A program made the translations under genes and the position numbers. DNA of 63,923 nt, counting the filler, from Hausera hauseri (lineage: Eukaryota), in assembly GCA_046269625.1 (NCBI GenBank). It is 12 parts of 12 records of this genome, joined end to end, with 100 filler letters (N's around TTAATTAATTAA, not from the genome) between each part and the next. Parts side by side here need not be neighbours in the genome. Positions count along the whole stretch, not along the records: positions 48,201 to 52,281 come from JBJURY010773427.1; 11 more parts are not named here. One strand, 5' to 3'. The notes under the pieces are model-generated. The model was not told where the DNA came from, did not search any database, and was given only the letters and a program-made list of their open reading frames with translations. Positions 11,099-63,923 of the stretch are shown here, piece by piece; the stretch's first letter is position 1; each line of letters starts with the position of its first letter.

Positions 11099-11182
11099 AA
11101 ACTATTGTTTTATAATTGCATGACAGTTCTACGGAGTCCGGTAATTTAAAGTCAAAGGTAGAAATATACCAACGTCAATTAT

Positions 11183-13600: not shown

Positions 13601-14332
13601 GAAATGGATATTTGTATTCGAGTTGTACCAACTTTCAATGAATGCCGGTGAAGACATAGTCAGAATCCGATAAACAGATCTTTTATGAATATTCCCGAGA
13701 TTAATTTTTCTGAAGTTACAGAACTTGTATGTTAACTGATCTGTTACATATTTCACTACCTGGATATTTATACATCTTTTCTTATCTGTACATAAAAGAC
13801 GTTTTGTGTAAAATTGGTAAAACTATTTTCCATATATTTTTTTCTTGATTTGGAAGTCGTAAGTTGTGACCTGACTACGTTATTGTTTTAATAATACACT
13901 TTGCATTTTGAACTTAATTTGAATTTTTCAGCCATATTTTTTCAACATTTGATATTTCAATTTGATTTGACTAGCTTACGCCATATTTTTTTCTTCGAAG
14001 AAATCGTCTTTTGCTATTATCAATTTTAACTCACTATCCATTTTTTTAAGAATTTATGTCTCAATTTTGCAGTATTTTATATCAAATCATTTATCGGATT
14101 TAGTCGATTTGTTGCGTGCATATAAGCACAACTGAAAATTTCGAATTATTTATTCGACTACCATATTCATTTTGATCAAATGATTTTAGTAACCGAATTC
14201 GAAATAGAAGGAAAATTTCTGTACATTACCAGNNNNNNNNNNNNNNNNNNNNNNNNNNNNNNNNNNNNNNNNNNNNTTAATTAATTAANNNNNNNNNNNN
14301 NNNNNNNNNNNNNNNNNNNNNNNNNNNNNNNN

Positions 14333-22389: not shown

Positions 22390-24520
22390 TTGGACGAAGT
22401 TGAAGGAAGAATCACCCAAATAGAGCAAAAGGTGAATGATAATAGTATGGGTTTAAATGAATTGGACGAGAAAACTGATCAACTTGCACAAGAAGTTGGC
22501 AACTATTCTAGACAACAAACTATTCGACAGCAAACTATTGATAACATAGCCAAATTATATAGAAATAGAGAACAGATAGACAATAATGAAAGACAAGTAA
22601 GGCAAAGGTTAAACGATATGCAAAATCAAGTAACAGTTATAGTAAACGAACAGGAACAAATTCAAGAAGGAAATAATTGTACTAGAAATTAAAGAGACGT
22701 TGATGCGAGATATAGATCGATTGAATGAACGTCTCGAGCAAGTAAGGACAGAGAAAGTAATAACCCGACGACAGGAAGAAGTACACACACCTGAATTCTC
22801 AGTAGAGGTAGGTTCAATGTCTTGCGAAACCTCTGACATCGATAGCGGCAACATGGAGCCACAGGGGGATAATCAAGAGCCATTGGCTCACCAAAACAGA
22901 TATAACTGTGACCCTAAAAATAATAATGTCACATATGATTACAATGAAGCACGAAGAGAAGAGAAATATCAGACACTTCTCCGTCTTCACACGTATGAAG
23001 GACGAGTATCGGACTTGGAAGACTTCTTGGATGAATATGATTCTCTGGCTACAGACATGCATTGGAGTGACGCGAAGAAAATATCACTTCTACCAGTACA
23101 TGTGAATAATGATTTAAGAATGGCAATAACGCGTCTACCCCTACGAGTAAACGAAACTTGGTTGCAACATAGAGAAAGGATTTTACAAAACCAGCAGGTC
23201 AATATCCAAGAGAACCGATATTTGAAATTCCAAAATTGTAAGCAGAAACCTAATGAAGAAGTGTTGACTTATATAAATAGATTTAAAACAGCAATGACTA
23301 GATATTTTGGTCATAAAGCAAATGCTTTTAGTGCAATGATCATGAAGCAATTTGTACTTGGACTTTTACCACCTTTAAAAGAAGGAGTTAAGTTTCATAC
23401 TGCCACAAATATTAAAGAATTGATAAATTACACTCGAAAAATGGCAACACGGATAGATGAGACACCGTTATGGGCTAACCAAACGCAAATAGCAGCAGTT
23501 ACTACGACACCATTACTAGTTAGACCAGACGTATCAAACCGTAGTAATTCACCCTGGAGAAACTCTTCAAGAAGCCAAAGTCCTAATAGTCAAAATACTA
23601 ATACCCCCCAGCGAAGTAATACCCCGGAGAGAGGAAATTTTAGCCAGTCATCCAGAAACTATAATCAAAGAAACACACAACATCAGCAAAATAGGGGAAA
23701 CTATGATGATCGACAGCGAAACGATAATAGATACGATAGAAAACGAGGCTTTTCGTGAGACAGAAACGATAACAGAAGTCGATTTCCTAGTAGAGAAAGA
23801 TATAGCAACGATCGAAACTTTGGGCGTTACGAGGATAGAAACCTTTATTATAAACGAGATGATAGTCGAACACAATATCTACGGGATGATAATCGAGCAC
23901 GATATCCACGAGACGATAGTCGAACAGGATACTCAAATAATCGATGGGAAGAGGTAAGATCTAACTATCCTAATGATAGGCGAAGTGAGAGCCGCGAAAG
24001 GTTTAGAAGAGAGGATAGCCGTGAAAGATATAATAATTTTAATAGAAACGATAATAGAGAAAGAGATAATCGACGGGGTGATAGTATAGAAAGATATAGT
24101 CCTAGAAACGATAATCAAACTAGTTATAATGACTCAAGATTAGGCAACCACGACAGAAGACGCGACTACACTCCACTTCGACGAGAAACGGATAGGTATA
24201 ATAGAAATCCTAGCCCATACCCTTCAAGAGACAGAAACCGAACTCCTTCCCCAGGACCAAATGGTAATAATAATAAATATACTCGATCGTCAGACTACAA
24301 TTTTAGACGAAATGAAACATCATCAAATAGGAGCGTTTCTCCGTATAGGTATGATAGGAATTCGACGTCACAATATTCCAATAATTTCAATGAGCGAAAA
24401 TCGGATTCGACAATACCATCTTATAGTAGTCCTACGAAAGAAAAAGGAAATTTGTCAGATAATAGAAAAAATAATAACGACGAAAGAAATGCCTCGCCTC
24501 GTCGTTCAGTAACTTTTAAT
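22390..24520 (+). pseudogene. Retrotransposon Gag: coiled coil, capsid-like core, long Arg/Asp/Asn/Ser-rich tail
   Basis: YEGR..DLEDFLDEYD.LA....WSD..KI..L, Q..NE.V..Y..RF and QFV.GL.P are Gypsy Gag core motifs. The low-complexity tail is broken by stops and frameshifts. Confidence 0.8.
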
Positions 24521-30757: not shown

Positions 30758-33480
30758 GACTGTCGGAAAAGCTGATCACGTACGATAAACTACAAGGACG
30801 GCCAGGTATAAAAATAAAGATACAAGGTAGATGGAAAGACTGCTTATTGGACACAGGAGCACGGGTGCACGTGATGAGTAAGAAGATTTTTGAAAGACTG
30901 ACAGATATCCGGCTGGATAAATCCGATATCATATTCCATTGTGCAAATGGTAGCCCCTAGATTGCATAGGTGAACCATCCGTAAATGTGGAACTCAAGGG
31001 TTTACAGAAAAGTGTAACTTTCATAATAATGACAGACATATCACCAGAAATAATTAAAGGAATGGAACTGCAAAAGACTTTTGGAATCGAATTAGGTTGG
31101 AGACAAAAGATGGAGATGAACAAAGATATGATGTATGCAAGTTAAATGCAAAATTTGGTCGAAAAGTGACAAATGAAGAACGATTCGAAAGAGTGAAGGA
31201 GATTCTGCGCATAAACAAAAACCCAGTGGTATTGGATATAGTACGGATAAACCAAGAAATCTTCATGGCTGACAAGTGGGACGTCGGCTGTACAACATTG
31301 ATCAAGCGTAGAATAGACACCAAAGGCTCACCATTTATCATCAAACCACATAGATAACCAGTGAATCTAGAAAGTAAAATCGATGAGACCATCCAAAACC
31401 TATGGTAAAACAGTATCATCAAGAAATGTAATTTACATTGGAATACTCCGATTATCTGCATCTGAAAGAAAGAGAAAAACGATGTCAGAATTTGTCTAGA
31501 TTTTAGAGAGTTGAACATCATTACAGAAAGACAAGCGTATCCCGTGCCGAATATGATGGAAATAATGAATAAACTATATGAGGCAAGATATATTACATCA
31601 ATCGATTTGGAAAACGCATACTACCAGGTCAAATTAGAGGAAGAATCCAAGTTGAAAACATCTTTTTTGAATAAACAGGGGCAATTTAATTTCAACAGAA
31701 TGCCTTTTGGAATAGCAGCAGCGCTGGGTACATTTCAAGAACTAATGATCAAATTAGTGATATATGTTGAACAAACTATAGTATACCTAGACGATAGATT
31801 GGTCTTTTCGAAGTCTTTAGAAGAACATTATATAATACTAGAAAAAGTACTAGATCAGATCAAAAAGACGGGACTGAGAATAAATGCAGAAAAATGCCAC
31901 ATCTTAAAAAAGGAGGTAAACGTCTTGGGACACTTTGTGAATAACAAAGGAATAAAAACGGATGCCTGAAAGCTGGACGCCATCAGATCCTTCGAGAAAC
32001 CGAAATGTGTAAAAAGTCTGAGAAGCATTTTGGGATTTGCAATTATTACAGCAGATTTATTCAAGGATACCCCACAAAGGCTAAGTCATTAGAACATATG
32101 TGCGGACTGAACAACAAAAAACTGGTATGGACCGAGACTTTTAACAAAGCATTTGAAGCAGTGAAGATGGCTTTGGCGTCGCCACTAATATTAGGGTTCC
32201 CAGACTTTAAAAAGGAATTTATTCTGGATAGTGATGCTAGCTTCGATACAATTGGAGCAGTATTATCACAGAGAGACAGCGCCGGGCATGAAAGCGAGAT
32301 TGCATACGGGTCACACGGAATAAATAATCAGGAAAAGGGCTATTGCATTACACGGAAGGAGTTTCTGGATATGTACTACTTCTGTCAACATTTTATTCAT
32401 TATTTCTATGGAAGAAGATATACAATGAGAACGGACCACAAGGCCAATACCTTCATGTTGAAAACAAAAATGCCGGTAACAGCACAACTCAAAACCTGGA
32501 TAAACTGTCTATCAAGTTTAGACATGACTGGAATACAGGAAAGGCACAGATCATGCAAACGCCAACATATTATTCCGGACCAATTGCGATACATGCAGCC
32601 AATGCTTATTATCTCACGAACATGCCAAAACATAAGGTCAAGACTCGAAGGATAAACGCAGTTGAAGCACCAGAAGCATATCCATATCAAAGAGGCAGCA
32701 AAAAAATTGAAGAAATAAAAGAATAAACCTCAAAAAAGAACATTGGAAATTCTTAGTGGAAAATGGCATAGTGAAGACAAAAACAGGCAAGATATGGATA
32801 CAAACGGATAAGAGGAAAGAAATGATAAAGCAATGTCACGCCATACTATTCTATGCCGGAATAGAAAAAGTAACAAAATACATAAGCAATAACTACGATA
32901 TGACAGACATGAAAGACACCGTAAAGGAAGTGATTGGATCTTGTGAGGCATGTCAACGAAACAAGACAGTGACAACGGGTGTGAAGGAAGAGACCCTGAG
33001 ACTCTCTGCAAACGAACCATTCGAGAAGATCTACATTGACACTTGTGGACCGTTAAAAGAAACCTGGAGAAAGAAAATATATTGGCCATCATAGACCAGT
33101 TTAGCAGACACATATAGCATTATCTGCTATTGCAAAACACGACGAAGTACAACAAAAGACATGGTGCTAAAGATATGGATTCTCAAATTCGGCGCACCGA
33201 AAGAGATACACATTGATTGCGGTAAAGCATTTGAATCTAAGGTCCTTAGAGACATGACAGCGTCAATGGGCATCAAGATGTGCTGTTCAAGCCTATATGA
33301 TCACAAGACCAATGGCATAGTGGAAAGGCAATTCCGGACAATTAAAGATTATATAGGTGCGACTCTTCATGATCGACGACGAACCGATTGGGAAGAGATA
33401 CTACCGGAGATAGAATTCACATTGAATGCAACAGTTCAGAAAACAACAGGATAGAGCCCAGCAGAAATAATACGATGGAA
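30758..33480 (+). mobile_element. Decayed Ty3/Gypsy pol (PR-RT-RNase H-IN)
   Basis: LLDTGA; CLDFRELN, IDLENAYYQ, RMPFG, YLDD; FILDSDAS..GAVLSQ, TRKE, RTDHKA; H..(Y)..CEACQ, IDTCGP, DCGKAF, NGIVER. The domain order is Gypsy. Confidence 0.93.
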
Positions 33481-39569: not shown

Positions 39570-41961
39570 TCACTCCCCCTGGCAAGACGAAGACTATGAA
39601 GAGAAGAAAATGAATGGAAATTATAGTAGGGAAAAGAAAAACTTAAACCTATTCGGTTTTGGTACATGTTAGACGTTGGACTCTATCTATGAACTTCTCC
39701 CTGCTATAAGTGCTAAACGTCACATGACGTGATCTGTTAGATGTTGCTAGTGCTTGTGGGGCTGTTCGAGGGAAAGAAACTGTGGATTTTGTGGTGTTTC
39801 TGGAGGATGTTTCATGAAGAGGTGAAAATGGCGAAGAAACTGAAGAGTGAAGTGGGTCAAGCGAAAGAGGCGAGACTGGAGGTGGAGGCAAATCGTGCGT
39901 TGACGGTGAAGTGAGTAGTGCGCGTGCAGGTGATGACAGCGAAGTGAGTGGTGAATGAACAGTGAACGATGACGGAAGTAAAAAGGATTTATTGTGACTC
40001 TACTGTTGCGACGGCTCAAAATTATCGAGGAAATTAGATAATGGCTCGCGAGAAGAGAAATTAGAGTCAGGATTTAAAACAAGGCTGTTATCCTGGTCAT
40101 CATCAACGAAGAATTCTGGCTTAAGTTTAGAGATATGTACATTTTGAGGTTTGTCCTTGCGTAAAATAGTAGCGGTGTGCGAACAAAGGTTTAGTAATTT
40201 GTAAGGGCCAACGTATTAAGGCCGAAAACCTGACGGTGAGGGGTCCTTCAGCCATACAAACTTGGCTGAGTATATGTCCTCTGGAATATAAGATTTGTCT
40301 TTATTTATAAGACGGCAAAATGCATTAGAGTTTACCTCTATAAAGTGGAACTGTGCTGCACGAATGACTTCATCTGATGGACTTTCAACCAGATTGGAGA
40401 GCTCAAATAGTGCACGAATTGGTGTCCCAAAGAGAGCTTCAGCCGGTGCACAACCGGTGGTAGTGGATGGCGTGTTACGACAACCAAGTAGAACAAAAGG
40501 AAGAATCGAAGTCCAATTACGATTGTTGTTTTCCAGGATTTTTAGAGAAATATTCACGGTACGGTGAAATCTCTCAAGAAGGCCATTTGCTTGGGGATGG
40601 TACGGCGTCGTCTGAAAGTGGGCTATCCCCAAGTGCTTAACTAGAGATTTAAAAAGATCAGCTTCAAATTGCGGACCCTGGTCCGTTATGATGTGACGTG
40701 AACCAAAACGGCTGACCCATATCTTGATTAATGCATCTGCTACTGAGTCAATGTTGGTTGATCGAAGCGAAACGGCTTCAGGCCAGCGGGAAGCGCGATC
40801 CATCATGGATAAGATGTATTGATAGCCGTTGTCGGATGGCAAAAAACCGACAAGATCCAAATGCACCGTGTCAAAACGGGACGTACAAGGGAAGTGGTAA
40901 AATGGTGGTTTTAGGTGTTTGTGACCTTGTATTGCTGGCATGCTGCACATCCCTTGACCCAAATCTGTACATCTGTACGCATAGTTGGCCATACAACGTG
41001 GCGTTGCAGTAGACGAAATGTGACTTTTAAACCCGAATGATGAAGAGAGTGAAAGTTATTAAAAGCTGTCTTTTGTAGCGATGGTGCAAGAATGATCTTC
41101 TTGTTGGTCGAGTTGGAAGTGTCATAAGCGATGCCATCAATGATTTCAACAGATTTAAAAGCTTGGAGAATGTCAGATGATGGCTGTTTGCTTCTCAGGA
41201 CCTCAAGGGAGAAAATTGGCTGAACTGTAATTGAGTTAACCGACCTCGAAAGAAAATCAGCTACTAAATTTTCGGTGCCTGAAATATATTTCATGGAAAA
41301 GTTAAAAGTCGACAGGTATGATAACTGTCGTTCTCGTCTGGGTGATGGCTGTTTCAAAGTCATTATATAAAGTAAAGGCTTGTGGTTGGTTTGGATGATA
41401 AATTGACGTGAAAGAAGCAAGTGCTTAAAATGCTTTACCGCAAAAACTACAGCCAAGAGTTCACGGTCGAATGTGGAGTATTGGCTTTTTGGTTGCGTGA
41501 GCTTTCGGGAATAAAATTCTAATGGTTCATCGACGCCATTGTATATTTGGTGTAATATCGCACCAGTTTCTGTGGTAGAGGCATCGGTAGTTAGTATTAG
41601 TTCGGCGTTTGGTTTTGGAAAGGCCAAGATTTCCACAGTTTTCAGACCTTGACGAAGGCGATCAAATTGGTTTACTAGATCGGGAGTCCAGTGGATTAAT
41701 TGTCTTTTCTTCCCAGATGAGAGGTGTGCGAACGGTGCCGTTAGTTCGGAGCAGTGTGGGACGGATTTGTGTACGAAATGCAATGTCCCTAGAAAACTCC
41801 TTCATCGGTAGTTGTAGTTGAGAACGTTACATTTTTTAATTGTTCTAAGCGATCAAGCTGGGGTGAATGCCCTTCAGGAGTAAATATGTGGCCTAGGAAG
41901 TTTACGCGTTTCTGGAAGAAATTGCATTTGTCGAAATTAATTTGCAGGTTACTTTGATGCA
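39570..41961 (-). mobile_element. Ty3/Gypsy 3' part: end of RT, RNase H, integrase, Ser/Pro-rich tail, PPT
   Basis: FLGH; LTTDAS..GAILHQ, YSTFDRELLAV, HKPL; HSLHH..CAACQ; HLDLVG, TDQGPQF, NGLLERFHR; GPY. PPT AGGGGGAG at 39580-39573, with a probable LTR start at 39569. Confidence 0.92.
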
Positions 41962-43039: not shown

Positions 43040-44890
43040 CTGTGAGCACCACACATTCATCTTCATCTGTCCAATCTGGGGTTTTGTGCTGTTATTGCGA
43101 TAACATGGTGCAATTTTCGATTAAACTATTGTTTCCAAATGATTCAGGAAATCATGCACACAGTTCCAGCCGTGAAACATGTAATACTGCGGTTGACCTG
43201 CAGCTTTTATCGGGACAACCAACATTCCCACGGCAAGTGGAACATGTTTTTGATCGTATACGTTGTGCCGTGGTAGGATTCTCAATAGCAGCATATATCA
43301 CATATGTTGTACTGTCCGTTTTATACCTATCACTAAATTGCAGTTCCTTTTTGAATGGCATGACGTACATTGTTGTTCCTGATGCATTCTGTTTGCACAG
43401 CGTCACATGTTTTTCCCACGTGGTTTCTGATCTGAATCCATGCAGACATGTAGGACACCATTTACAACGTATTTATTTTTGGACAAATTGATGGTAATCC
43501 ATGTTCAACAGTCGGTCCAAATTTGTCACGGCCAAGTAATGAAAATTTTCTGCCTGCTTCGTCAATAACAAATTTAATGTACATCCATTCGGTTTCCGAC
43601 TTCGATAGATTATATCTATATGTGGATTCTTGTAAAATTTTCTCGTCTGCCGGTATTTCAACTATTGTCTTGTACCGGAACACGTTGATTGACAGTGTCG
43701 GATTACGCAGTTCAAATGTTGAAATGGATTTTAGTTTCATCGGCATCCAGTTTTCGTCGAATTGCGATTCGAAAAATACTGCCGATACTAACTTGGACGA
43801 TATTCACTGTCTGTTCACTTCGTCATATTTTAATACCGCCAGAATACTGTAAATAAAACAGTAATCATCGTCCGTGTTTTTTACATTCACTACCTAATAA
43901 GAGTGCTTTAGAGCTTCAGGTGTCGGTATGAATAAACGTCCGGACAGGTAAATCATGTCACTCGACTTTGTTATAATAAAACCGAGTGACGATTTTTATT
44001 ATTCGTCAACTGCATTATTATTCCACAACTGCCTTTTTCGGTGTAATTGACGATGTTTTCGTCCAGCTTTTCGCCCATATCGGCAATGAAATCTTTGGAA
44101 TATGGAACTGTTCGATGTGACAGGAACCACTGTTTCCTGTTACCCTGCAGATTCTCAAATTCTGCAAGTGCATAATATTGCCCTTTGCAGTTGTGGTGTT
44201 TGAATTTCTCCACTTCGGTTTCTAACCGGTTGCGCACATAACCGGGTACATGCCTGAGTTGAGTTGCTGATTTCGCCGACATGTTAACTTTTATATCCAG
44301 GGACGATCTGTTTAGGTCGTACTTGACAGTAATGGGCGGTTCCTGTTGATGCTGCTGCTCCCGCCGCTGATGTTCTGTATTGCTGCTTTGCAGGTATTCG
44401 TCAAGACTTGTTGATGTTTGACATTTCCTGCTTGTTGAGGGAATACTGCTTTTTGCTGCCTCCATTAATATTTCCTTTTTGGACCCATGAAGCTGGTTCA
44501 AGTGTTCCTTGTGCTCATTATAAAATTGTTCATAGTTGATTTCATCAACTACAGAACAACCGGGACAGACGTAGGCCCGTTTACTGTGCACCGTTATGTG
44601 CCATAGTACTACTCCATTTTACTATGGCAACCTGCAACGTTGTGCACTTTACTAGTACAATACCTTGGGTACAAGGAGCAATGCACATGCATCATCTTAG
44701 ACCGATTAACGGTCCATGATTATACTTGTGCACCTCATAAAAATCGGCGTATAGACAAGGGGCCGAAATACTACCGCACGTTGGTCCCAAATGAGTCCGT
44801 GCCAACGAAGTAATATTTAGCCATTTGCTGATAGCACTGATCCTGCTCCACATGTATACGCGAGACGCAATACATGGGATAATTAGTGCA
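43040..44890 (-). pseudogene. N-terminal half of Maverick PolB, close relative of 52750-54430
   Basis: Near-identical peptides (ITVKYDLNRS..DIKVNM, HNCK.QYYALAEFENL, NVKNTDDDYCFI, RNPTLSINVFRY). Truncated at a GC-rich junction. Confidence 0.88.
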
Positions 44891-45047
44891 TTTCTGAATG
44901 GAAAACAAAATAAAATAAATGTTTTATATTAAGTTATACTATAAATTGAAATATGGCAACTTATTTTCGGTCTTGAGAAAAAAAGGTCTCCTTACTCCCT
45001 CGTAAACAATTATTCTAAACGCTACAACAACAACAACCAAAAATCAC

Positions 45048-45293
45048 ATGGAACACTACATTGAAAGCGAGATTAAGAAATAGACCGATGACATTTTGAC
45101 TGGACATGTGTTTTATGTTCAGTTTTTGTGTGAGCTCGCAGAAACCAGAAGTAGTCGACGGGAATATATTGAATTACTTGTCAGATCTCTATTCATACAA
45201 CGTACCAAAGATGAAATGAGATGAAAACGGCATCAACAACGACAGATTAATTTCCTCATTGGACTTGTTTTTTTGCTATGCTTTGTATTGTAA
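45048..45293 (+). pseudogene. Small ORF divergent from PolB; homologue of 52382-52605
   Basis: MEHYIES....D.I.TGHVF.VQ.LCEL..TR.SRREYI.L...QR.INFLIGL. Confidence 0.65.
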
Positions 45294-47651: not shown

Positions 47652-48972
47652 CATTTTATTTAAGTCGTAATTTTTATCTAGATGTCTTGTGTGAAATAAT
47701 CATCTTTCTATCTACTCATGGTCATGACAAACCAAATGTGCTGGATATTGATGAAAACAAATAAACATAGATAATGTGACATTTATACTTTTCTTTGTTG
47801 TTTGGGTGATTTATTTTTTTGATTTTGAAATAAAATTGAGAAACGAATTTTTGGATAAATTTTTTACAGTTTCTGACTAATAATAATTGTTTGTTCTGTA
47901 CTTATTCGACTATTTTCCATTCATTATTAATATTCTATAACTATTCTATCATAACAAATACTAATTGTTTATAAATTAAAAATTGTTAGAGCCATTTTTA
48001 TACTTTTGTTAATAGCATCGTGACACTGCAAACGGAATGACCTCATGTGACATTTGCGGGATAAAAGAAATAATCACGAATTCACCCAATCCGGGATAAG
48101 NNNNNNNNNNNNNNNNNNNNNNNNNNNNNNNNNNNNNNNNNNNNTTAATTAATTAANNNNNNNNNNNNNNNNNNNNNNNNNNNNNNNNNNNNNNNNNNNN
48201 TGCTTGATAAAATCAGAATGCATGTTCGGAAACACAAAATTAATGGTGGAGAAATTCCCCCGGAGAGCAGCACTCCGAAAACAATGGCTAGGTATGTTGA
48301 AAATTTTAAATTAGATGTTTTTTATATGTATATATCTTGGATAAGGGATATGGGGAGATTATGGGGATATATAAACCGGTGTTTATAAAATTAAGGTCAA
48401 GTTTAAGAGAAAGTAGATATGTATGGGAAATGAACGCACATATACGTCATGTTTTAGTGAAAAAGAAGGGGTTTCTCGGGGACAACAAACAAAATTTTAT
48501 AATTGAAGTTTACCGTCTGGATCGAGATCTATTAATGGGGAATAATATGAATTTAAATGGGCCTAGCAAACAATCGTACAATGGTATAAATATGGACGAA
48601 CTCGTTTATATATTCAATTTAAATCCTCCATTTTATGGTAGCAGAGCGTGGTTTGTGCTCTGCACCGTGATCCGCGGGCACAAACCACGTGATGTTTTGA
48701 TCTTTCGAGGTGTTCTGTATGTCTGTCTTCTCGTTTTCGGCTCTTTTTCTTTCCGTTTTAAGTTTGAAATAAAGGCGAGAATCTCCTGCAAGATATGCAC
48801 GGTGAGGAGTTTTGAGGAAACAAATAAAAGGAAATGTCGTGACTATCTTGCAGAAGTGACGCCAAATTGGAGAGTTGTAAAACCTTATGCCGAGGGCAAT
48901 AAAAATTTAAAAGAAAATGTATTAAAAGTTTATCACTCTAAACAAATAGAGAATAGACAACGTTTATCTATG

Positions 48973-49203
48973 GGGACTTCCGGTTATCCAGGACGACCAG
49001 GAAAAAAAGGAATTAAGGGAGGTAAAGGTGAAATTGGAAAGGATGGTCTGGAAGGGGAAAGGGACATAATAATAAACAAGTTAGTCATCAAGTGAGTCAA
49101 AAAGGATATATCGAACCTAGAGGAGACATTGAAGAAGAAGGATTAATTGGACAAAAAGGACATGTTGGGAATTTTGCAAATAGAAGTTCAAATGGTGAAA
49201 AGG
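48973..49203 (+). other. Collagen-like Gly-X-Y repeats
   Basis: GTS GYP GRP GKK GIK GGK GEI GKD GLE GER (10 triplets), then a degenerate second run after a frameshift. Confidence 0.8.
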
Positions 49204-49235
49204 ACGATAATATGACTAGAGTTGGAAAAATAAGA

Positions 49236-49451
49236 AAACAGATAATCATATGTTGCGGTGGACGAAATTACGTGGTAGACGCAACTGAGGTTCAGTCGTA
49301 TCGTGGCCTAACCGGAATAATAAGGAAAAATCTGAGAATAAACGGGGAATTCAGAACATTATATGCTGAAAAGCCGCTATGGATCGACGAAGCAGTGAAA
49401 AGCATAAGACATGGTGCAACACTTCATTTAACGTTCCAGTTAAAAGGAGGA
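49236..49451 (+). other. Ubiquitin-like domain in frame with Gag
   Basis: About 72 aa ending FRTLYAEKPL...IRHGATLHLTFQLKGG; compare ubiquitin QRLIFAGKQL...IQKESTLHLVLRLRGG. Confidence 0.75.
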
Positions 49452-50630
49452 AGCGAAATAACAGCGGACAAACTCGAAGAGCGTATTGCCGAACGACGAG
49501 GACCCATAAATGAATTGGCTTTGATTCGAAGTAGATTGATGGATATAAATTTGAACAAACATGATTATAACGTATTCCATCAAAGTGATAAGAAGGTTTT
49601 TTCGAGTGTCCAAGAAGAACTGTGTATATTGACCACCGCAGCCAGGAAACGAAAAAGAAAAGATAATGTAACATTGCTAGAGAATGAAATAGAAAAACGA
49701 GACGAGCAGAACAAAAAAATCAACACAATTATCCATGAAAGAAGCTTAATAGAAAACAAATCGACAATTAACACAGTAAGAGGTGCGGATAGTGGTATAA
49801 AGGAAAAGGTTATATTGCCGAAATTGCAGAAGTTAGAACTCCCAAAGTTTGGCGGTATAGTCACAGAGTATGATAAATGGAAGAGAACGTTTGACACCTG
49901 CGTTCATAAGACGTCAATGTCTGACATCTACAAACAATTGCAATTAAATCAATGCCTGTACGGAGAACCGAAGAGATTAATTGAGAACTTTGACCTGTCT
50001 GAAGAAGGCTATAAGGCTGCAATGGGAAAACTTGACTCTTATTATGGGGGAGAACAACGGTGTTTTGCCGCCTTCATGACCGAAGTGATGCGTTTTAAAC
50101 CAATCAGGGAAGAAGACATCATAGGCCCAGATAGATTTGTTGCTTTGTTGGATGGCATAACAGTAAGATTGTAAAATTTGGGAAGGAAAGAAGAATTGGG
50201 TGGAGGATTATTATATAAAAGTCTTGTAGAAGAACTCCCAGAATCTATAGTATTATTATGGGAGAGACATGTAGCTGAAAAGAAGCTAAATCGAACGGTT
50301 GAAGAATTGAAAACTTGGGTGGAGTCGGAAGCGAGCATACGGAGGAGCACCATTAAAAGAATTAGAGGTATCAACGTCTTTAATACATTTGAGGCTATAT
50401 CGCCGTCAAGATTTGGAAATGAAAACAAATTTGATCAAACAACAACTAACAATCGTTCCAGAGTTGAAAATTATTAGAATAATGCAACGTTCGGAATCAG
50501 GAGACATGACAAATAAACACGAAAGAGATTTTACATAGATAGACAACCTAATCAAAATGAGACTCGAGTTCAAGATAAGATGAAGACAGGTAACAGCGTT
50601 AAAACATCAGATAAGAACGAGGAAATGCTT

Positions 50631-50777
50631 TGTTGGGAATTTGAAAAGGAGGGGACTTGTAAATTTGGGAATAATTGTAGATTCTTACACAAGAAAGATA
50701 TGAAAATCGAAACACGGATATGCAAATATTATCTGAAGGGAAATTGTAAGTAGGGGGAAAATTGTCATTTTGTTTAT
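50631..50777 (+). other. Tandem CCCH zinc fingers at the Gag C-terminus
   Basis: Hand translation: CWEFEKEGTCKFGNNCRFLH (C-x8-C-x5-C-x3-H) and CKYYLKGNCK*GENCHFVY (damaged C-x7-C-x5-C-x3-H). Confidence 0.8.
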
Positions 50778-52381
50778 GAATCACCGCAAATAAGGATAAT
50801 TCTAAAAAACAAGAAAAAGCGTTCTATACACGACACACAGAAGAAAGAGTAAACAAAGAGGAAGACGTGGGAGACGATATTGAAGCACGGGTCAACACGT
50901 ATGTAATTCAACGATCAGAAGGGAAAATGACAAAAAATAAAATAGCATTGCATACGGTGGACGTATGTTTGGAGAATGGAGAGCGAAAAATAAAAGTGTG
51001 TATGTTGTTAGATGATGCGAGTACAGAATGCTTCGTAAAACGTTCTGTCGCAAAGCAATTAAAATTAACTGGTAGTCAGGAAAATGTGTCCGTCATGGTG
51101 GTAGGTGGAGAAACAACAAAGTCGAAAATGAAAAGGATAAAAATGAAATTACGAAGTAAGAACGGAAAGGTTGACATCCCATTTAAAGCGTTGGTCCCCC
51201 ATGATCCAATTGGGAAAATGATGGCCGTAAATTGGGAGATCGAGAAAAGAAAATGGCCACATTTGAGAGAAATAAAGTTTGCCGCTTAAAAATTGCAGAA
51301 ATCGGTTGATGGGATAATCGGTGCGAACTATATGCATTTGCATAGGTCTATAAAGGAAATAGCAGGAAAAGCAAACGAACCTGTAGCCGGATTGACTCCA
51401 CTCGGATGACCGTGAGTTGGTGTGATCGGAGATGAAAGAAAAAAGGTAAGGACGAATTTCGTTAGAACATTTTGGACAAGAACCGATAAAGTGCAAGAGG
51501 ATTGGAACAGATTATGGGAAGCAGAACAGGGGTTCCAAGAAAGGACGGAGCTAAATAACTTAGAGATTGAATTGTTGGAAAAAGTAGCTAACGGAATAAA
51601 ATATGAAAAAGATAGATATTGTGTTAAACTACCCTGGAAGGGAGAGAAACATCCAGACGTCAGTAATTTTGAATCTTCATGGATGGCGAAAAGAAGGTTG
51701 GAATTACTAATAAAAAATTAGATAAAGATGTTAAAGTGAAAGCGGAATACGATAAGGTTATTAAAGAATATGAGGAGAAATTGCATATAAGAAAAATACC
51801 GAAAGAAAAAGAAGAGGAAACAAAATGGCTATTACCGCACTTTCCTGTATTCAAGTTTGATCGTGACACCACGAAATGTCGAATAGTGTTTGATGCGACT
51901 GCAAAAATTAAGGAAAAGTGTCTAAATGATTTCTTAGAAATCGGTCCAAAATTACAACTCGACGTAGTTAACATCTTACACAGAATGCGTCGCAATAAGT
52001 ATGTTTTAATTTGCGACATACATGAAATGTTCCTCCAAATTGCAGTGGATTCGACAGATAAAAAATATTTACGTTTCATATGGAAGGAAGATAATAAATA
52101 AGTTATCTACGAATTCAATAGATTGGTGTTCGGACTAAATAGTTCTCCTTTTTTAGCACAGTTAGTATCCAGAGTGAATGCGGAAGGATTTGAAAAGGAA
52201 TATCCAAGAGCAACGGAAACTATAAGACGATCTACGTATATGGATGACTGCATAGATTCAGGTCCAACAGAAGAGGAAATANNNNNNNNNNNNNNNNNNN
52301 NNNNNNNNNNNNNNNNNNNNNNNNNTTAATTAATTAANNNNNNNNNNNNNNNNNNNNNNNNNNNNNNNNNNNNNNNNNNNN

Positions 52382-52605: not shown

Positions 52606-52749
52606 TTAAGTTGTAATATGTAATATGGTTGATATGTTTATACCTGCGTAAAAGAAATAAGTTAGAGTATAACAATTTATTATATAAGTGTATTTAATGT
52701 TAACATTTACTTTAATTTGTTTCTAATTCAGAAATAAAATCAATATCCT

Positions 52750-55700
52750 ATGTATTGCGTCGCTCGCACATGTGAGGAGGCAGAACAGTGCCATCAACAG
52801 ATAGTGAAATATTATAGTGTTGGACTGGACACATATCTGTGTCAGACGTGTAATAATATTTCAGCCAAATGTCCGTACACCGATTTTTATGAGATGCACA
52901 AGCATCATCTCGGACCGTTTACACGGTCGAAGAAGAAGATGCTAGTGCATTGCCACATTTATCCACGGTATTGAACAATTTTATAATAAGCACAAGGACC
53001 ACTTAAACCAGTTTCAGAGGCCCAGAAAGGAAATATTAATGGAGGCAACAAAAAGCACTATTCCATCAACAAGAAGGAAACGTCAAGCATCAACAAGTGT
53101 TGACGAATACCTACAAAGCAACAATACAGATCAGCAGCAACAGCAGGAACCGACCATTACTGTCAAGTACGATCTAAACAGATCGTACATGGACATAAAA
53201 GTAAACATGTTGGCGAAATCAGCAACTCAACTGAGGCATGTATCGGCTCATATGCGCAACCAGTTAGAAACCGAAGTGGAGAAATTCAAACACCACAACT
53301 GCAAAGTGCAATATTATGCACTTGCAGAATTTGAGAATCTGCATAGTGACAGGAAACTATGGTACCTGTCACATCGAGCAGTTCCATATTCCAAAGATTT
53401 CATTGCCGACATAGGCGAAAAGCTGGACGAAAGATTCGCCAACTAGACCGAAAAAGGCAGTGGTTGGCGAGTAATGAAAATTGTCACTCTCGGTTTTATT
53501 ATAACAAAGTCGAGTGACATAATTTACCTGTCCGGACATTCATTCATACCGACACCTGAAGATCTAAAGCACTCTTATTTGGTAGTAAATGTAAAAAACA
53601 CGGACGATGATTACTGTTTTATTTGCAGTATTCTGGCGGTATTAAAATATGATGAAGTAGACAGACATAGTGCATATCGTCCAAGTCAGTATCGGCAGTA
53701 TTTCTCCGAATTGCAATTCGACGAAAACTGGATGCCGATGAAACTAAAAACCATTCCAATATTTGAACGGCGTAATCCGACACTGTCAATCAACGTGTTC
53801 CGGTACAATGCAATAGTTGAAATACCGGCGGATGAAAAAATTTACAAGAATCCCTATGTGGATATAATCTATTGAAGTCGAAACCCGAATGGACGCACAG
53901 TAAATTTATTATTGTTGGAGCAGGCAGAAAAATTTCATTACGTGGCCGTGACAAATTTGGAACGACTATTGAACATGGACCACCATCATTTTATCGAAAA
54001 GCGTATACGTTGTAAATGGTGTCCTGTATGTCTGCATGGCTTCAAATCAGAAACCACGTGGGAAAAACATGTGACGCTGTGCAGACAGAATGCAGGAACA
54101 GGAACAACGATATACGTCATGCCAGTCAAAAAGGAGCTGCGATTTAGTGACGGGTCTAAAACGGACAGTCCAGCTTATGTGGTATATGTTGATTTTGAGG
54201 TAATCCTACCACGGCACGACGTATACGATCAAAAACATGTTCCAATCGCCGTCGGAATGTTGATTGTTCCAATAAAAACTGCAGGTCAATTGCAGTATTA
54301 CATGTTTCACGGCTGGGACTGTGTACGTGATTTCCTGCATCATTTGGAAACAACAGTTGAATCGGAAATCGCACCGTGGTATCGCAATAACAGCGCAAAA
54401 CCCCTAATTTGGACAGACGAAGACGAACGCCTGATGTTTGCAGTCACAGAGGAATGTTATCTGTGCCACAAAATATTACCGCTTGATGCACAGGAACAGC
54501 TCGTACCGGATTGTGACCATTTTACCGGTTGATATCTCGGTGCAGCATGCAATTCATGCAATTTGGCGAGGCGTGTGTGGCCATTCCCACAGGTGATCTT
54601 TCATAATTTCCGAGGTTATGATTGTCATCATATACTCAAATGGGCCATTAACGGATTTCCGCACTGGGAACTATCCATAATCCCAACAATAATGGAGAAG
54701 TACCTATCCTTATTGGCACGCATAAACCGGTTTCAGATACGATTTCTTGACTTATTGCAGTTCCTCAATAAATCTTTAGCAAAGCTCGTAAATGCCTTGC
54801 CGGATGTACCGCTAACACTGACGCAGTTCCCCGCACATATTTCATGCAGCAAAGGCATATTCCCGTATGATTTTGCTGTACCGTACGAGCGACTGCAGAC
54901 AACAGAGGAGTTGCCACAACAATGGGCCGGAATTACAGAGGACGAGTAGCAGAAAGCGCAGAAATTTCGGAAAGAGCTGAACTGCATGCAACATGTTGGA
55001 GTACATTCTCCAGTACCTGAAACTGGACGTGTACTTGTTAGCCGACGTATTCCAAGCGTTTCGGGCTAAAGCGTTGGAGGAAGATAGGCTGGAGCCGCTT
55101 AATTTTTACTTTATACCGGGGATGAGTTGGAAATCAGCTCTAATGTCAACAAACATCACGCAGCCAGTGGTAATGATACCACCACCACATCAATGCTGTA
55201 TACTGACATTAATAACCTGTACGGTTTGGCGCTTTCGCAACCTTTTCCGTACGGTTCATTTGAATGGGTTGTCAAAAAAACAGGAATTGGATGCATTAAT
55301 GGACAGTCTACCAGCAGCAACACGACAGAAAGCAGCTCAGTCGGCAACCTAATGGAAGTCGATCTCGTGGTACCAGGTGAGCTGCATGACGCTTTGGACA
55401 AATTACCCGTGGCACCAATCAGCCAATGTCCACCCGGCGGCTCAAAAGTAAGGAAACTGCTCATGACGCATGAACTGAAATCGAATTATGCGGTTAATTG
55501 GCGTCTACTGCAGTTTTAAATGCAGTTCGGTGTACGCATTATACAGCTGCATCGTGCAATTCGCTTCAAACAGGCTCCGATATTCGAGGAATACTTTGAT
55601 GGAAATTCGGAGAAACGAGCCGCAGCTTGTACAAAGTTCGAAAAGGACTATTACAGGCTCAAAAACAATTCACTGTACGGCAAAACAGTGGAGAAACTAA

Positions 55701-56441
55701 AAAAGCATATCAATGTGCGCCTGAGCAACAACAAAAAGCGCCTGGTTACGTATACCAGCAAAGCACAGTTTCGGCGATCGATGCACATTGCCGACGGATT
55801 AGTCGCCGTGCTTCTCAACAGGGAAGAAGTAGTACTGGACCGGACAAGCTACATCGGACAAGTAGTACTGGATCTGAGCAGGTTACGCATGTACGAGCTA
55901 CAGTATCGCGACTTGGCACATTACCGGCAACGGAGGCTGCAAGATCAATATCGTTGCCGGTGACACAGATAACTTTTTCCTTGAGCTGAAAAACATCGAT
56001 CGGGACCAGCTGCTTCGACAAATGATGACAGATGGACTATTGGACACGTCCAACTACTCGCAGAATCATCCGCTGTACAGCAGCTCAATGATAAACAAAA
56101 TCGGCTGCTTCAAGGATGAAAGCGAAGGCCGTATCCAGTACCGAGTATGGATATTCCTACGCACAAAGTGCTACAGTCTTTTGACAGATTGTGGGCCGAA
56201 AATGCGCGCAAAAAGCATCCAGATGAATTAGACGGAATTAAATCACGGTGATTATCGCCGTGTCTATGATGGAGAAGAAGAAGAATCAAAGGCTGTTGTG
56301 TCCCAAACGACCATACGATCGATTGAGCACTAGCTATATACCATAACAAATAAAAAGATTGCTTTGTCATGCAACGATGATAAGCAAAAGTGGGTGGGGC
56401 GGAATAAAGGTTGGGCGTATGGACATTGGCGTTTGAAATAA
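52750..56441 (+). pseudogene. Protein-primed DNA polymerase B, near full length, decayed
   Basis: YVDFE, endonuclease-VII-like C..C...DHFTG.YLGAAC..CN, FHNFRGYD.H, KGIFPY, YLKLDV.LLADVF, YTDINNLYG.A.S, LKNNSLYGKTVE, GDTD, GCFKDE, K.YS, DDK, YGHW. Confidence 0.93.
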
Positions 56442-58490: not shown

Positions 58491-58832
58491 NNNNNNNNNN
58501 NNNNNNNNNNNNNNNNNNNNNNNNNNNNNNNNNNTTAATTAATTAANNNNNNNNNNNNNNNNNNNNNNNNNNNNNNNNNNNNNNNNNNNNCTTTTCTCGA
58601 TTAACTCAAATTATAATAATTAGGGTTATTTTCAGTGATTTTTATTTTTAAAAATTAACCACTTACCAATTTCAAGTTATTTGCCTAAATATTCTCAACC
58701 ATTTTGACTCTTGAACTACTCAATGCCTATATTTAACAAGACTGATGAAAGTCCATGAAGCACATAAAACCAGTCTGGTTTTATGGTCACAGATTCTGGA
58801 GATTTGATATTCTAATTGGCAGTTATATACTT

Positions 58833-58900
58833 TGCCCCATGTGAGGATCAATCTCACGACCCTCAGATGATGAGACTAACACACTACCTACTGCGCTAAT
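58833..58900 (-). pseudogene. tRNA-Met(CAT) pseudogene, 5' acceptor strand lost
   Basis: Reverse complement ATTAGCGCAGTAGGTAGTGTGTTAGTCTCATCATCTGAGGGTCGTGAGATTGATCCTCACATGGGGCA. Confidence 0.75.
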
Positions 58901-59442: not shown

Positions 59443-59515
59443 TGCCCCATGTGAGGATCGAACTCACAACCTTCTGATTATGAGACTGACGCACAACCTA
59501 CTGCACTAATGAGGC
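59443..59515 (-). tRNA. tRNA-Met(CAT), elongator type, probably degenerate
   Basis: GCCTCAT-TAGTGCAGTAGGTTGTGC-GTCAGT-CTCATAA-TCAGA-AGGTT-GTGAGTTCGATCCTCAC-ATGGGGCA, 73 nt, close to vertebrate tRNA-Met. D and anticodon stems have mismatches. Confidence 0.8.
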
Positions 59516-60055
59516 TCCTGCTATTAAGTTTTCTACCTTATTTATCAAGCGTATTAGAGTGCTGAGAATTTTAGGTCTATTCTCAAATTTAAGAATAAAA
59601 GCTATTTTTCAACCTTCGCAAGTCTAAGAATCACTCATACTCCCTCAACTATTTAAGAGACCTTCAAAGGTGGCCTAAGTGGTTGGACTTGACAGTAGAT
59701 GGCGACAATGAAGTGAAAAAATTTACTTTCAAATCAATCACCATGTTTTCACTCACACGTACAGATCACAGATCAGGAAAACACACTTTCTCTGCTGAAA
59801 TGAGTGGCTCTTTGGATTGGAACAAGTGTTCTGGGAGCAGAAGAACTTCCTTTCCTTGATTTAAATTGATTTGGACTAAATTCTAACCCATTACCAGTAG
59901 CCACACGCATACAGAGCTGCACAATATACTTTCACTCTAAGCACATAAATAATCTTTTTGATATAAGTTGTGATAAACATTGTAGACACTCACTAATGTA
60001 TACAGGTACTTTAAAATGTAGATTTTTAGGGTGATGTGATCTTTCTTATGTACTA

Positions 60056-62244
60056 CCGTGTTTCCCCGAAAGTAAGACCCTGTCTTACATTCTTTTTAAC
60101 CCACCCTGTCTTACTTTCGGGGAGGTCTTACATTAGCCGGAAAAAAAATGACAATTTCTTTTTAACCAAAAAATTAACATTTATTAGCATGCTGAACAGT
60201 AGAATAAAAGAAATGTAGCGTATCAAGAACATCTTGTTATTACCGTATGACGGTATTTACATGTAAAACAACGAACTAAAAACAACAAACAGTCTGAATG
60301 AGTTATACTGGAAGATAAAACAAGATTTATTCCATCACAACCAGGTCATCATCTTCAGGAACATCATCATAAACATCAACACTCTGAGGTTCCTCTGGAT
60401 TTTCTTGGGGCTCTTGAGGCTCCATTTCCGCCTGGATCATTGGCCCATACCTGTCATGTGTTGCAACGGCACTGTCCTGAAATGAGCAGGTCTTGTCCAG
60501 GTAGCCAGCTCGCAGTGCATTTGCAACGCAGGTGTCAGTAATCTTATCCCATGAATTCTTCACCCAGTTCACAATCTCTGGCAGTCTGGGCTTCACAAAG
60601 TTCCCACGCACATTTCTCTCCATTCTGTTCTCAATGTGGTCATTGATCTCGGCACGGAGATTGTCCTTGAAGGGCTTGTTTATGGTGATATCCAGAGTCT
60701 GGAGATAAGCCGTCATCCCTGCCGGAATCATGATCTGGTCGATTCGTCGCTCATGAAGAAAGTTCTTCATGTCTTTGGCGCGGTGTGTGCTGGCTGCATC
60801 CCAGATCAGCATTCCTCTTTGGGTGCCTCGCATAACAAGCGGCAGCATTAAATCAAGCCACTTCCTTATAACAGCTTGTGTGGCCGAGGGTTTTTCAGTT
60901 TCCAGCACATAAATGCCAGAAACCTGCTCAATCTTGTCCTTCTTGCCCTTTGCAATGAGTAGCGGTGTTACTTTAGTGCCATCCAGACGAATCGCCAAAA
61001 TGCAGGTGACACGTGCACTTTTATAAGCGGTGGAGGGAACGTACACAGAGGAGGCACCTCGTTGGTCAATGGTGGTTTGAGCTGCTTGGCCCATGAACAC
61101 GGCAGTTTCATCCATGGCAATCATGTTGGAGAGACTGTACTTTGTGAAGTCAGTGTCATCCACAAACATTTTGTAGGCAAAAGCACGTTTAACTATTTCT
61201 GCATCCTCCAGCCTAAAGAGTGTGGTGGATCTTCTCAGAGACAGGTCATTGCGTTCAAGAAAGTTATCCACCCAGTGCTGTGAGGCCTTGAATTCCTCAG
61301 GGGAAATCTCAAACTGTGGTGCACTTGCAAGAGCAAATTCCTGAATCTGAGCCCTGGTCACCACCAATGTCTTCGCTCTCCTGTCAGCAACCCACTCAGA
61401 GACCAGGGCTTCCAGCTCAGTAAACATTGGTTGCCGACCACATCCAACCTTACGCATTTTAGCCTTTCCGGTCTCCGTTCGTTCACTGATGCGATCATAA
61501 TCAGCTCGCCATTTGCGGACCAAACGTTCAGCCAGCATTTTTGTTTGCAGAATTCCGCAAGATTCTTGCCCCGAGATTCCTCCACTTTCCCTTTTTTGTA
61601 CTCCACAGAGTAGCTTTTTCTTTTACCGGGACCAGAAGAGCTCATCTGGGGGTAAAAATATACGGTATCAGCATTGTTTCTGGTTCCGTATCTGTTTTAC
61701 AGTACGGTACTTTACATTACGGTAGACTGTTCAACAAGCAAGCAATCCCTGCAGCCTCCTCATTGTTGTACGGTACAGTACGGCATCCCCTGCAGCCTCC
61801 CCATACAGTGGTTCTGCCCCCCACTCTGCCACCACACACACTGACACATACGGTACCAGTACAGCCCCACACGGCACCCACACACATATCGTACCGGTAC
61901 CGTACACACACACACTGACATATACAGCTCCATACGGCACCCATACACATACCGTACACACACACACACACAGAGAGAGAGTTTCGGAACTTACCGTTAC
62001 TTTCCTTCTGTTTCAATCTCCTCTGCGGTGCCGGGCTGACGATTCGGATGCCGGACCAATCGGAGCGAGCCTGCAGGCGGTGATGTCGCGGCTGATTCGG
62101 CCAATCAGCTGCGAGCTGGCTGACTGGCCAATCACAGCTCGAGCTGATGGCCTTACAATCGGGGGGTGCCCTACATTGGCGGACCCCCCCGAAACCCCCA
62201 CCCTGCCTTACTTTCGGGGGGGCCTTACTTTCGGGGAAACACAG
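60056..62244 (-). mobile_element. Complete pogo-superfamily (DD35D, Passer-like) DNA transposon
   Basis: TA|CCGTGTTTCCCCGAAAGTAAG ... CTTACTTTCGGGGAAACACAG|TA, with subterminal copies of CTTACTTTCGGGG at both ends. Confidence 0.92.
60327..61645 (-). pseudogene. pogo transposase with one frameshift near the N-terminus
   Basis: KRKSYSVEYK HTH, CENP-B HTH (FKASQHWVDNFLERNDLSLRR), MDET, WD-x35-D (35 residues counted). Confidence 0.9.
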
Positions 62245-63923
62245 TACGTTTTGCCTGCTGGAGTAACTCTTCGCACAGAGGCCTCCAGTTGCGTCCTGCT
62301 TTTGTGTTGAAACACCCTGCCGGTGTTTCAGCTTCTTCTTCCTGGCAGCTTTTTGCTTAAACTTCACAAGTGAACTTTTAAGATTGAGCCATATTTTTGG
62401 GCGACCCCTCTCCACTGGGTGTCCTGAGCCACGTCGAGGTGCCACACTCAGCCTTCTGCAAGCTGCGAGTATCCAGACTCCCGTGAGCAAAGCTGTGACG
62501 GCCAGCACTTTCAGGGCCTCTTCTCAGCTGTCCATCAACAAGCTGAGACGGTCCCAACACCAACTGGTAAACAAAGCCTTGGGTGCTGTTTTCCCCCGTC
62601 CACTGACTCCTGCCACGGTAAGAGGCCACGGGTCTATAACTTGTCTGACCTCGGGAGAACCTCCGGCTCACCCTGGCTCACTGGTTAAGAGACATAATAA
62701 ATATAGCCCAGTATAGCTGTATTGTTTGTCTCTCTCTTTTCCTATCCCTTGCCTCACACACACCTCCACTCTTCCACACACACACCCTGAAGGTGTAACG
62801 AAGCATTGTGTAATAATCACTACTGTTAGTTATCACAACGAGAGCTCTGTAGTAACTAATAATCACTCAATTGTAATCACTTCCTTTAATTTTTATTTTA
62901 AATAAAAATCCTGGTTACATTGTAACAGGAATAAAATTAATTAGCGACTCCTAGTGTTTCTATGAAACTGAAAGTTGGGTATTTCTTGACAAACAGGCCT
63001 TGAACCTTGTTTAACTTGGTAAACTACTACTAGGACATTATAAATGGTACTCCAGGCAGTGGGTTTATTCTACATTTTGGCGAGCCAGCGTGGAGGTCTG
63101 AATATGAAATATCTGGTCTTTAATTTCATAAAAACAGTTTATTTTGCTTCAGAGTGAGTTTGTGCTGTGTGTTAAAAGGTTTTCTTTTTTCCTCTCTCCT
63201 TTGTGTGCTTGTAGCATTCCCTGCTGGACAGAGATGCATGTTGTACACACTCTTGTTTGATCCTTGTGAAGTTATAAGCTTTCTGCTGTCTTTGTGCTTT
63301 TTTGTGCTTTCAGTTATAACTGTTATTGATAAAAGTCATTGTGATATCAATTATTGGTTGTGCATGCAAGTTGTTATAAGATCGATCAGGGCGAGTGTAG
63401 TTAAGCTGCACAGTTGTTCGCCTGGGATAATTGTCGCCTTGTCCGCGTATTCCGGAAAGTTTGACAGTTTTTCCCCCACTTCGTGTTGACCCCTCTGCTT
63501 TGGCCAAGTAAAAGGTTGGGGCCTGCTTATTTTATAAGCTAAAGGTAGAAGTGTTAGTCGCTGCGTAAATAGTCCGTTCTAAGCTACGGGTTTTAGCGGT
63601 TGCAGGGGATTTGTTCTGTCAGCGTGACACTGATGGATTTCCAGAGCTTTGTGTTCTGAAGAACAGACTTCTGTGTCTGTTGGTAGAGGGGACCAACGCT
63701 GTTGTGTGTTCGGTCACTGTGTTTCAAGGTTTCCGGTATTAAAAATGTGTTGGTGGAGCGGAGCCGATCTGCCTCTTAGAGCGAGGCAAGTGACTCCATA
63801 TTGAACTGGGAAACACTGTTCTTGAAGCCGCCCCCCCCCCAGGGCGGAGTGTTGTTCTCATTGGTTCAGTAGTAGAAGTGCCACCGTCTTTAAATAGAAA
63901 AGGGCTTTAGTGCCATCGTGTGT

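Follow-up and report, generated by a model that had tools for sequence, protein, structure and literature searches.

Whether a BEL/Pao retrotransposon can carry CCCH zinc fingers at the place in Gag where Cys/His knuckles are typical, and whether such fingers are inherited or peculiar to one damaged copy, is the question raised by this locus. The window, i.e. the whole stretch of DNA that was analysed, comprises 63,923 nucleotides from Hausera hauseri (GCA_046269625.1). It consists of 12 contigs joined by 11 N-spacers, each of 100 bases with a 12-base linker in the middle. Because of this composition, adjacency across the spacers is meaningless, and neighboring features of the window were discarded as genomic context. 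The CCCH-bearing element is located on the plus strand of a single contig (48202-52281; 4,080 bases) and is cut by the contig end. An overview of its features is given in Table 1.

Along the plus strand, a primer-site-like sequence is followed by collagen-like repeats, a ubiquitin-fold domain, a helical segment, a DUF1759 capsid, a spacer, two CCCH fingers, a protease region and a reverse transcriptase (RT). Gag, protease and RT are thus found in BEL/Pao order, with the contig ending within RT. The full order including RNase H and integrase was seen only in the knuckle-bearing database relative P0179, a 2000-residue frame with ubiquitin, DUF1759, knuckles, protease, RVT_1, Peptidase_A17 (the Pao RNase H), integrase and DUF5641. 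The RT is 53% identical over 198 residues to this full-length BEL/Pao polyprotein, and its best match is P0155 (53%), a cluster mate of P0179. The element shares with BEL/Pao an RT related to BEL/Pao RTs and a DUF1759 capsid in Gag; it does not share the CCHC-type knuckles of the nucleocapsid, which are typical but not defining. Judged by its RT and capsid sequences, the element is a BEL/Pao variant.

Table 1 Features of the CCCH-bearing element and of the joined window (positions count along the whole window)
Feature	Position	Strand	Remarks
N-spacers	5102, 9722, 14233, 22290, 26574, 30658, 35289, 41962, 48101, 52282, 58491		
Primer-binding-site-like sequence	48636..48651	+	Sole match in the window; likely start of the internal region
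Collagen-like Gly-X-Y repeats, two frames	48973..49169 (48973-49062, 49104-49169)	+	Pfam Collagen E 0.0011 (19.2 bits, below the cut-off of 27.2)
Ubiquitin-fold domain, diverged, Gly-Gly end, head of Gag	49224..49451	+	Fold model and position in relatives
Helical, coiled-coil-like Gag segment	49452..49814	+	55% identical to P0003; aligns across ubiquitin-headed relatives; helical nature read from sequence
BEL/Pao capsid domain (DUF1759)	49815..50381	+	Pfam E 2.2e-13; in-frame stop 50172-50174
Polar, basic spacer, poorly conserved	50382..50630	+	18.6% identical to P0003; stops 50475-50477 and 50514-50516
CCCH zinc finger 1, intact, C-x8-C-x5-C-x3-H	50631..50690	+	Pfam zf-CCCH E 2.9e-09
CCCH zinc finger 2, broken, C-x7-C-x5-C	50721..50777	+	Stop 50751-50753; no fourth-ligand histidine
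Aspartic protease region	50942..51406	+	Pfam Asp_protease_2 E 0.00045, below cut-off; frame other than that of Gag in this copy
Reverse transcriptase	51673..52281	+	Pfam RVT_1 E 0.00037, below cut-off; ends just past YMDD at the contig end

The copy is dead. Stop codons interrupt the frames of Gag (four), protease (three: 51287-51289 and two shortly after) and RT (one: 52099-52101, upstream of YMDD at 52237-52248). The reading frame changes before RT and between Gag and protease, the latter change being placed between 50786 and 50819 by tblastn with P0003. A pair of LTRs was not found in 40000-63923, and with the contig ending at 52281 the 3' end of the element is absent. The contig holds a BEL/Pao LTR retrotransposon copy that is both truncated and decayed. 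A total of 3,473 contigs of run X1 match the 4-kb contig at ≥80% identity and cover 30 of 30 bins, which argues for a many-copied family. Of these, 27 cover position 50666 within finger 1, and one runs from finger 1 over finger 2 in the direction of the protease (50667-50901). They were not counted as independent of the window, since X1 may be its source.

The primer-site-like sequence is presumably complementary to the 3' end of initiator tRNA-Met. Around it, a few contigs of run X1 step back by about 60 bases, as if the site were duplicated. The only tRNA gene of the window, a tRNA-Met gene (59443-59515, minus strand), was considered as primer source and rejected, as it does not match the primer-site pattern; an 82% similar copy of this gene, not called by ARAGORN, lies 610 bases away (58816-58900). 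For Belpaoviridae, the ICTV profile gives a primer-binding site for tRNA-Arg or tRNA-Gly (PMC8742986).

Other contigs of the window contain further mobile elements and genes. Decayed element copies at 52702-56440 (plus strand) and 43073-45271 (minus strand), on separate contigs, are 73-94% alike in pieces; the former matches the protein-primed polymerase B domain DNA_pol_B_2 (E 0.00029, below cut-off) and may be Polinton-like. A DNA transposon at 60054-62246 has 27-base inverted ends and a 431-codon frame (60327-61622, minus strand) with HTH_Tnp_Tc5 and DDE_1. Gypsy-like by their domains are 40216-41801 (minus strand, RNase H and integrase), 31945-32655 (plus strand, RNase H) and 22646-23758 (plus strand, weak Retrotrans_gag). 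An uninterrupted 604-codon frame at 11162-12976 (plus strand) resembles tubulin-tyrosine ligases (E 2.5e-65), and a 414-codon frame at 14281-15525 (plus strand) has an N-terminal RING finger.

The initial annotation described two tandem CCCH fingers between the Gag core and the protease that had been missed by the ORF track. Their location is confirmed by the capsid before and the protease region after them (Table 1), and the omission is plausible: finger 1 lies in a stretch of 78 codons between stops, below the 100-codon list. Of the two fingers, the first is intact; the second contains a stop and has no histidine as fourth ligand, so that the window copy holds one intact and one dead finger rather than two intact ones. 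Finger 1 has the spacing of PF00642, and the stop-free piece around it (50532-50750) alone scores 37.1 bits against a cut-off of 20.5. Once the stops are read as X, Pfam counts two zf-CCCH stretches (E 1e-11), separated by a linker of 10 residues. Shuffling the 4,080-base contig 2000 times produced a CCCH motif by chance in 7 cases, any frame considered.

The comparison with P0003, a relative in which finger 2 is intact, shows where the element is conserved. Finger 1 shares 14 of 20 residues (70%) and finger 2 shares 10 of 19 (53%), compared with 72.5% identity in the capsid and 67% in the protease (67-69%); the linker reaches 30%, and the two spacers reach 19% and 26%. In this two-sequence protein comparison, which is not a dN/dS estimate, finger 1 is as conserved as the capsid (70% vs 72%).

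Knuckles were searched for by patterns and by profiles. According to PMC12440569, the nucleocapsid motif of Belpaoviridae is C-x2-C-x4-H-x4-C; the ICTV profile names a nucleocapsid domain and gives no motif (PMC8742986). The initial annotation had reported no CCHC knuckle in the region between capsid core and protease, and the absence extends well beyond it. In a six-frame translation of the entire window, the strict CCHC pattern is never matched, and the wide pattern is matched twice, both times off the contig of the element. The comparative Pfam scan proposed earlier is informative for zf-CCCH, which matched, and uninformative for zf-CCHC, which missed all nine of the knuckle-bearing BEL relatives scanned and was discarded as a test. 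As Pfam zf-CCHC is silent on such relatives, a separate BEL knuckle profile was built from the knuckle arrays of 59 relatives. It scores 52.8 and 62.5 bits on held-out relatives, 10.7 bits on a truncated third one, and at most 1.1 bits in the six frames of the contig, with -0.6 bits for P0003 and -0.3 bits for P0153. A knuckle displaced into another frame was therefore not found in any of the six, and the array is gone from the contig, not just decayed.

To collect relatives, the Gag frame with X at the stops was compared to 1.84 billion cluster representatives, and the best 150 of 2,380 matches were taken; 21 + 1 proteins from two more searches and six from cluster look-ups were added. P0003 has a capsid 72% identical to that of the window and two complete fingers with window-like spacing; its capsid, fingers and protease share a single reading frame. 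At its far end, faulty gene calling has joined it to a host CFAP58 coiled coil. P0153, with a capsid 44% identical to that of P0003, encodes capsid, two complete fingers and the protease start in one open frame. Its spacing is different, with a C-x7 finger, a 3-residue linker and a C-x7-C-x4 finger. The zf-CCCH scores are 43.0 bits for P0003 and 34.2 bits for P0153. P0154 stops where finger 1 would begin, and P0175 opens with the last part of finger 2, followed by the protease; they probably derive from one broken element, since both list a longest contig of 5,749 bases. A complete finger was seen in three elements only, and P0004 and P0007, close in capsid, end before the slot. The fingers are hence not missing from sibling copies: P0003 and P0153 keep tandem CCCH fingers in the slot and have no knuckle, which upholds the proposed swap of the nucleocapsid module.

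The slot behind the capsid was classified for 162 usable capsids: 89 have knuckles, three have CCCH fingers and 70 have neither, mostly because the records end early. In the 55 proteins in which capsid and protease were both found, at least one knuckle is present in 54 (of which at least two are identical in capsid) and none in P0003. The distance from capsid to protease is 186 residues in P0003 and 126 in P0153, the median in 37 knuckle-bearing relatives being 152; the net charge of this part is +9 and +10, respectively, and +10 at the median of the same 37 relatives. A loose CCCH pattern also matches the junction of knuckle 2 and motif 3 in P0019, P0100 and P0129, three proteins without a Pfam zf-CCCH match. 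A strict CCCH pattern missed P0003, which served as positive control, and was not used as evidence among relatives.

Further searches were largely negative. Among the database relatives, none proved to be a full-length CCCH element with integrase and LTRs, and a word-index search among longer proteins, a weak one, returned nothing from 1,099 candidates. JGI metagenome contigs yielded no locus with P0003 and one locus with P0153 as query; this locus (L001) has a single CCCH motif in an open frame and no capsid match and was rejected as a relative. No loci of CCCH elements were found on scanning viral contigs. In the ESM Atlas, Gag retrieved DUF1759 clusters only, with leads below 0.9, and the fingers retrieved generic zf-CCCH clusters only, with scores of at most 0.77. 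NCBIfam and Rfam added nothing.

The phylogenetic reconstruction was based on 41 chosen capsid rows, namely the 14 closest ones, 24 drawn from the main group and three outgroup rows. The window, P0003, P0154, P0004, P0153 and P0007 form one clade (98/99), and the same six capsids group together in a quick tree of all 162 rows (SH-aLRT 87). On the 41-row tree, the distribution of CCCH fingers and CCHC knuckles takes one change; for this scoring P0154 was labelled CCCH by inference from P0175, while P0004 and P0007 were left uncounted. The sister group of the CCCH clade is not resolved. Since every resolved outer group bears knuckles, these would be the older state if the root lies outside the CCCH clade. 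A quick tree built from 51 protease rows groups the window with P0003 and P0175 (SH-aLRT 100), and the ubiquitin-headed, knuckle-bearing P0015 and P0155 adjoin this group (91, unstarred). Both flanks of the fingers thus point to the same relatives, so that the change is confined to the nucleocapsid slot. The CCCH trait is inherited.

Several other explanations have to be weighed. A late insertion of the finger DNA into a dead copy, or an artefact of assembly or gene calling, might be suspected in a copy full of stops and frame changes, the more so with P0003 being chimeric at its far end. It is hardly credible given three separate records that agree in position and type of the fingers at 44-80% capsid identity, given the single open frame of capsid, fingers and protease start in P0003 and P0153, and given contigs of run X1, not counted as independent, that cover finger 1 and extend towards the protease. 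The fingers could also have been remodelled in place from the end of a BEL array; motif 3 (C-x4-C-x3-H) together with the final cysteine of knuckle 2 already offers CCCH-like spacing there. The loose pattern matches exactly this junction in P0019, P0100 and P0129, and finger 2 of P0153 (C-x4-C-x3-H) aligns to the same part of the knuckle profile, but at -1.5 bits. As those three proteins have no zf-CCCH match while the fingers of the element and its relatives reach 34-45 bits, as the knuckle profile scores below zero on P0003 and P0153, and as cellular CCCH proteins match the fingers at E 1.6e-09, we regard remodelling as very improbable.

Two captures, one in the group of the window, P0003 and P0154 and another in that of P0153, would explain why the groups differ in finger spacing and linker length, at a separation of about 1.4 capsid changes per site. 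Both groups fall into one starred clade that includes no knuckle-bearing member among the rows, however, and finger 1 of P0153 shares 10-11 residues with finger 1 of the window and with both fingers of P0003, many of them general to CCCH fingers; a double origin is quite unlikely. The main rival explanation accepts the swap and assigns packaging of the genome to the basic spacer, leaving to the fingers a different RNA task, such as stability or translation of the element's own mRNA, or a function as decoy against host CCCH defence proteins. Gags with no CCHC array at all are known in errantiviruses and spumaviruses (PMC2774666), and PMC5031192 describes CCCH proteins acting in mRNA decay and RNA defence; the spacer region is indeed basic (net +9 and +10). 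On the other hand, the spacer shows little conservation (19%), the fingers occupy precisely the place of the knuckles at a similar distance between capsid and protease, and in the rows available the knuckles disappear on the same branch on which the fingers appear. We consider packaging by the spacer unlikely.

The preferred reading is that the CCCH fingers are the RNA-binding unit of the nucleocapsid in place of the knuckles. This is probable, and packaging of the genome would be their putative role. Comparison of sequences establishes that the zinc module of the nucleocapsid was replaced, that the replacement was inherited, that it is limited to this slot and that the fingers are conserved. 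The lineage concerned is a small one within BEL/Pao, and its Gag is ubiquitin-headed. Nucleocapsid knuckles serve assembly, RNA packaging and reverse transcription (PMC2774666).

In the ancestor, a ubiquitin head, helical segment, capsid, three Cys/His knuckles, protease and RT would have followed one another. The knuckle array would then have been lost and its slot taken by a pair of cellular-type CCCH fingers, for which a piece of host mRNA captured during reverse transcription is the likeliest source. No host donor was identified from PDB matches or the ESM Atlas. The best PDB match of the P0003 finger pair is Yth1 (residues 94-142, E 1.6e-09), followed by CPSF4 and TIS11d; the matches are spread over many CCCH families, none of which stands out as donor. 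After cleavage of Gag-Pol by the protease, the basic spacer and the two zinc fingers would serve as nucleocapsid.

In TIS11d, aromatic residues in both loops of a finger stack on RNA bases (PMC1635273). Aromatics are present in both corresponding loops of finger 1 of the window, of both P0003 fingers and of finger 1 of P0153; finger 2 of P0153 has one in the second loop only, the first being missing. From ligands, aromatics and PDB matches, the fingers are predicted to bind zinc and single-stranded RNA. Stacking of bases on two aromatics per finger would let them hold the RNA of the element and pick out the genome to be packed into the particle. Knuckles read G-containing motifs; the motif of the fingers would probably differ and be U- or A-rich. 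The same source (PMC1635273) warns that the target of such fingers is not predictable from sequence.

The head of Gag also deserves attention. Pfam finds no ubiquitin domain in the window head on its own. Modelled from a two-row alignment (window and P0154, without ubiquitin), it adopts a beta-grasp fold with pLDDT 76.7, two of five models being above pLDDT 70 and three below 50. The five top PDB matches of this model are all ubiquitin (probability 1.00, TM 0.71-0.77 by target). A Pfam ubiquitin domain directly precedes the helical segment in six relatives (P0005, P0015, P0046, P0058, P0081 and P0179), and against a profile of these domains the window head scores 14.1 bits, a value reached by none of 491 scored shuffles; the P0154 head scores 6.2 bits, reached by 3 of 495. 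The Gly-Gly end is shared by 9 of the 10 aligned rows that extend this far. Its retention suggests a cleavage site for host deubiquitinases, which would cut Gag behind the head. A ubiquitin head with Gly-Gly end is found in a wider group of BEL/Pao Gags (P0005, P0015, P0041, P0046, P0058, P0081, P0155 and P0179). No description of such a head in BEL/Pao Gag was found among the papers listed in one literature search on the subject. The head marks this wider group and explains how such loci could be mistaken in annotation for host genes of the ubiquitin or CCCH type. Where the window has collagen-like repeats, P0154 has a charged low-complexity stretch. The repeats are possibly a third captured piece of the host.

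The Cys/His knuckle has been called the only conserved signature of Gag proteins, which otherwise change fast (PMC2582038). In the lineage described here, an unrelated zinc fold has replaced the entire set of knuckles and has persisted while the capsid accumulated about 1.4 changes per site, and the lineage has multiplied. It may thus be viewed as a natural experiment on the duties of a nucleocapsid, i.e. sequence selection of RNA, chaperoning of primer annealing, or both. As CCCH fingers read sequence, a packaging signal should be findable, which has so far not been easy for BEL/Pao, a group whose particle formation is little known (PMC8742986). No report of a CCCH Gag in BEL/Pao was found among open-access papers screened by title and opening lines of the abstract. 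The term 'CCCH' is absent from the main text of the surveys PMC3118150, PMC8556966, PMC13524379 and PMC6238403 and from that of PMC2774666; five matches in PMC2864245 proved to be the name of an element. An unannotated Repbase family may well show the same layout.

Among known BEL/Pao elements, P0179 and P0155 have the same order of DUF1759 capsid, protease and RT as the window element, and a ubiquitin-fold head ending in Gly-Gly is common to both sides. They carry a three-motif Cys/His knuckle array, whereas the window element has two CCCH fingers in its place, a far more diverged ubiquitin head that Pfam does not match, and collagen-like repeats upstream. A CCCH motif instead of CCHC is reported for the Gag of Saci-2 from Schistosoma mansoni (PMC2582038); Saci-2 belongs to Ty3/Gypsy, which points to a separate origin. 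Taking both together, one may tentatively imagine, though we find it doubtful, that host parts served to rebuild the two ends of Gag in a BEL/Pao lineage not described before. Host deubiquitinases would then release the capsid by acting on the ubiquitin head, and the captured CCCH fingers would choose the genome by reading a U- or A-rich signal. Such replacement would have occurred repeatedly and convergently, and the zinc knuckle could be exchanged for a finger with which cells read mRNA. Departures from the standard knuckle that are specific to a lineage, as in the window element, are also reported for CsRn1 (CHCC; PMC2582038) and Troyka (C-x2-C-x8-10-H-x4-C; PMC12440569), but there they are altered Cys/His motifs of Gypsy-like elements and not a tandem pair of Pfam zf-CCCH fingers. 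In finger type, spacing and aromatics of the base-stacking loops, the element resembles the cellular proteins Yth1/CPSF30, TIS11d/tristetraprolin and MBNL, and residues 94-142 of Yth1 show the same succession of a C-x8 and a C-x7 finger. In contrast to these cellular tandem CCCH proteins, the fingers of the element are embedded in a retrotransposon Gag-Pol.
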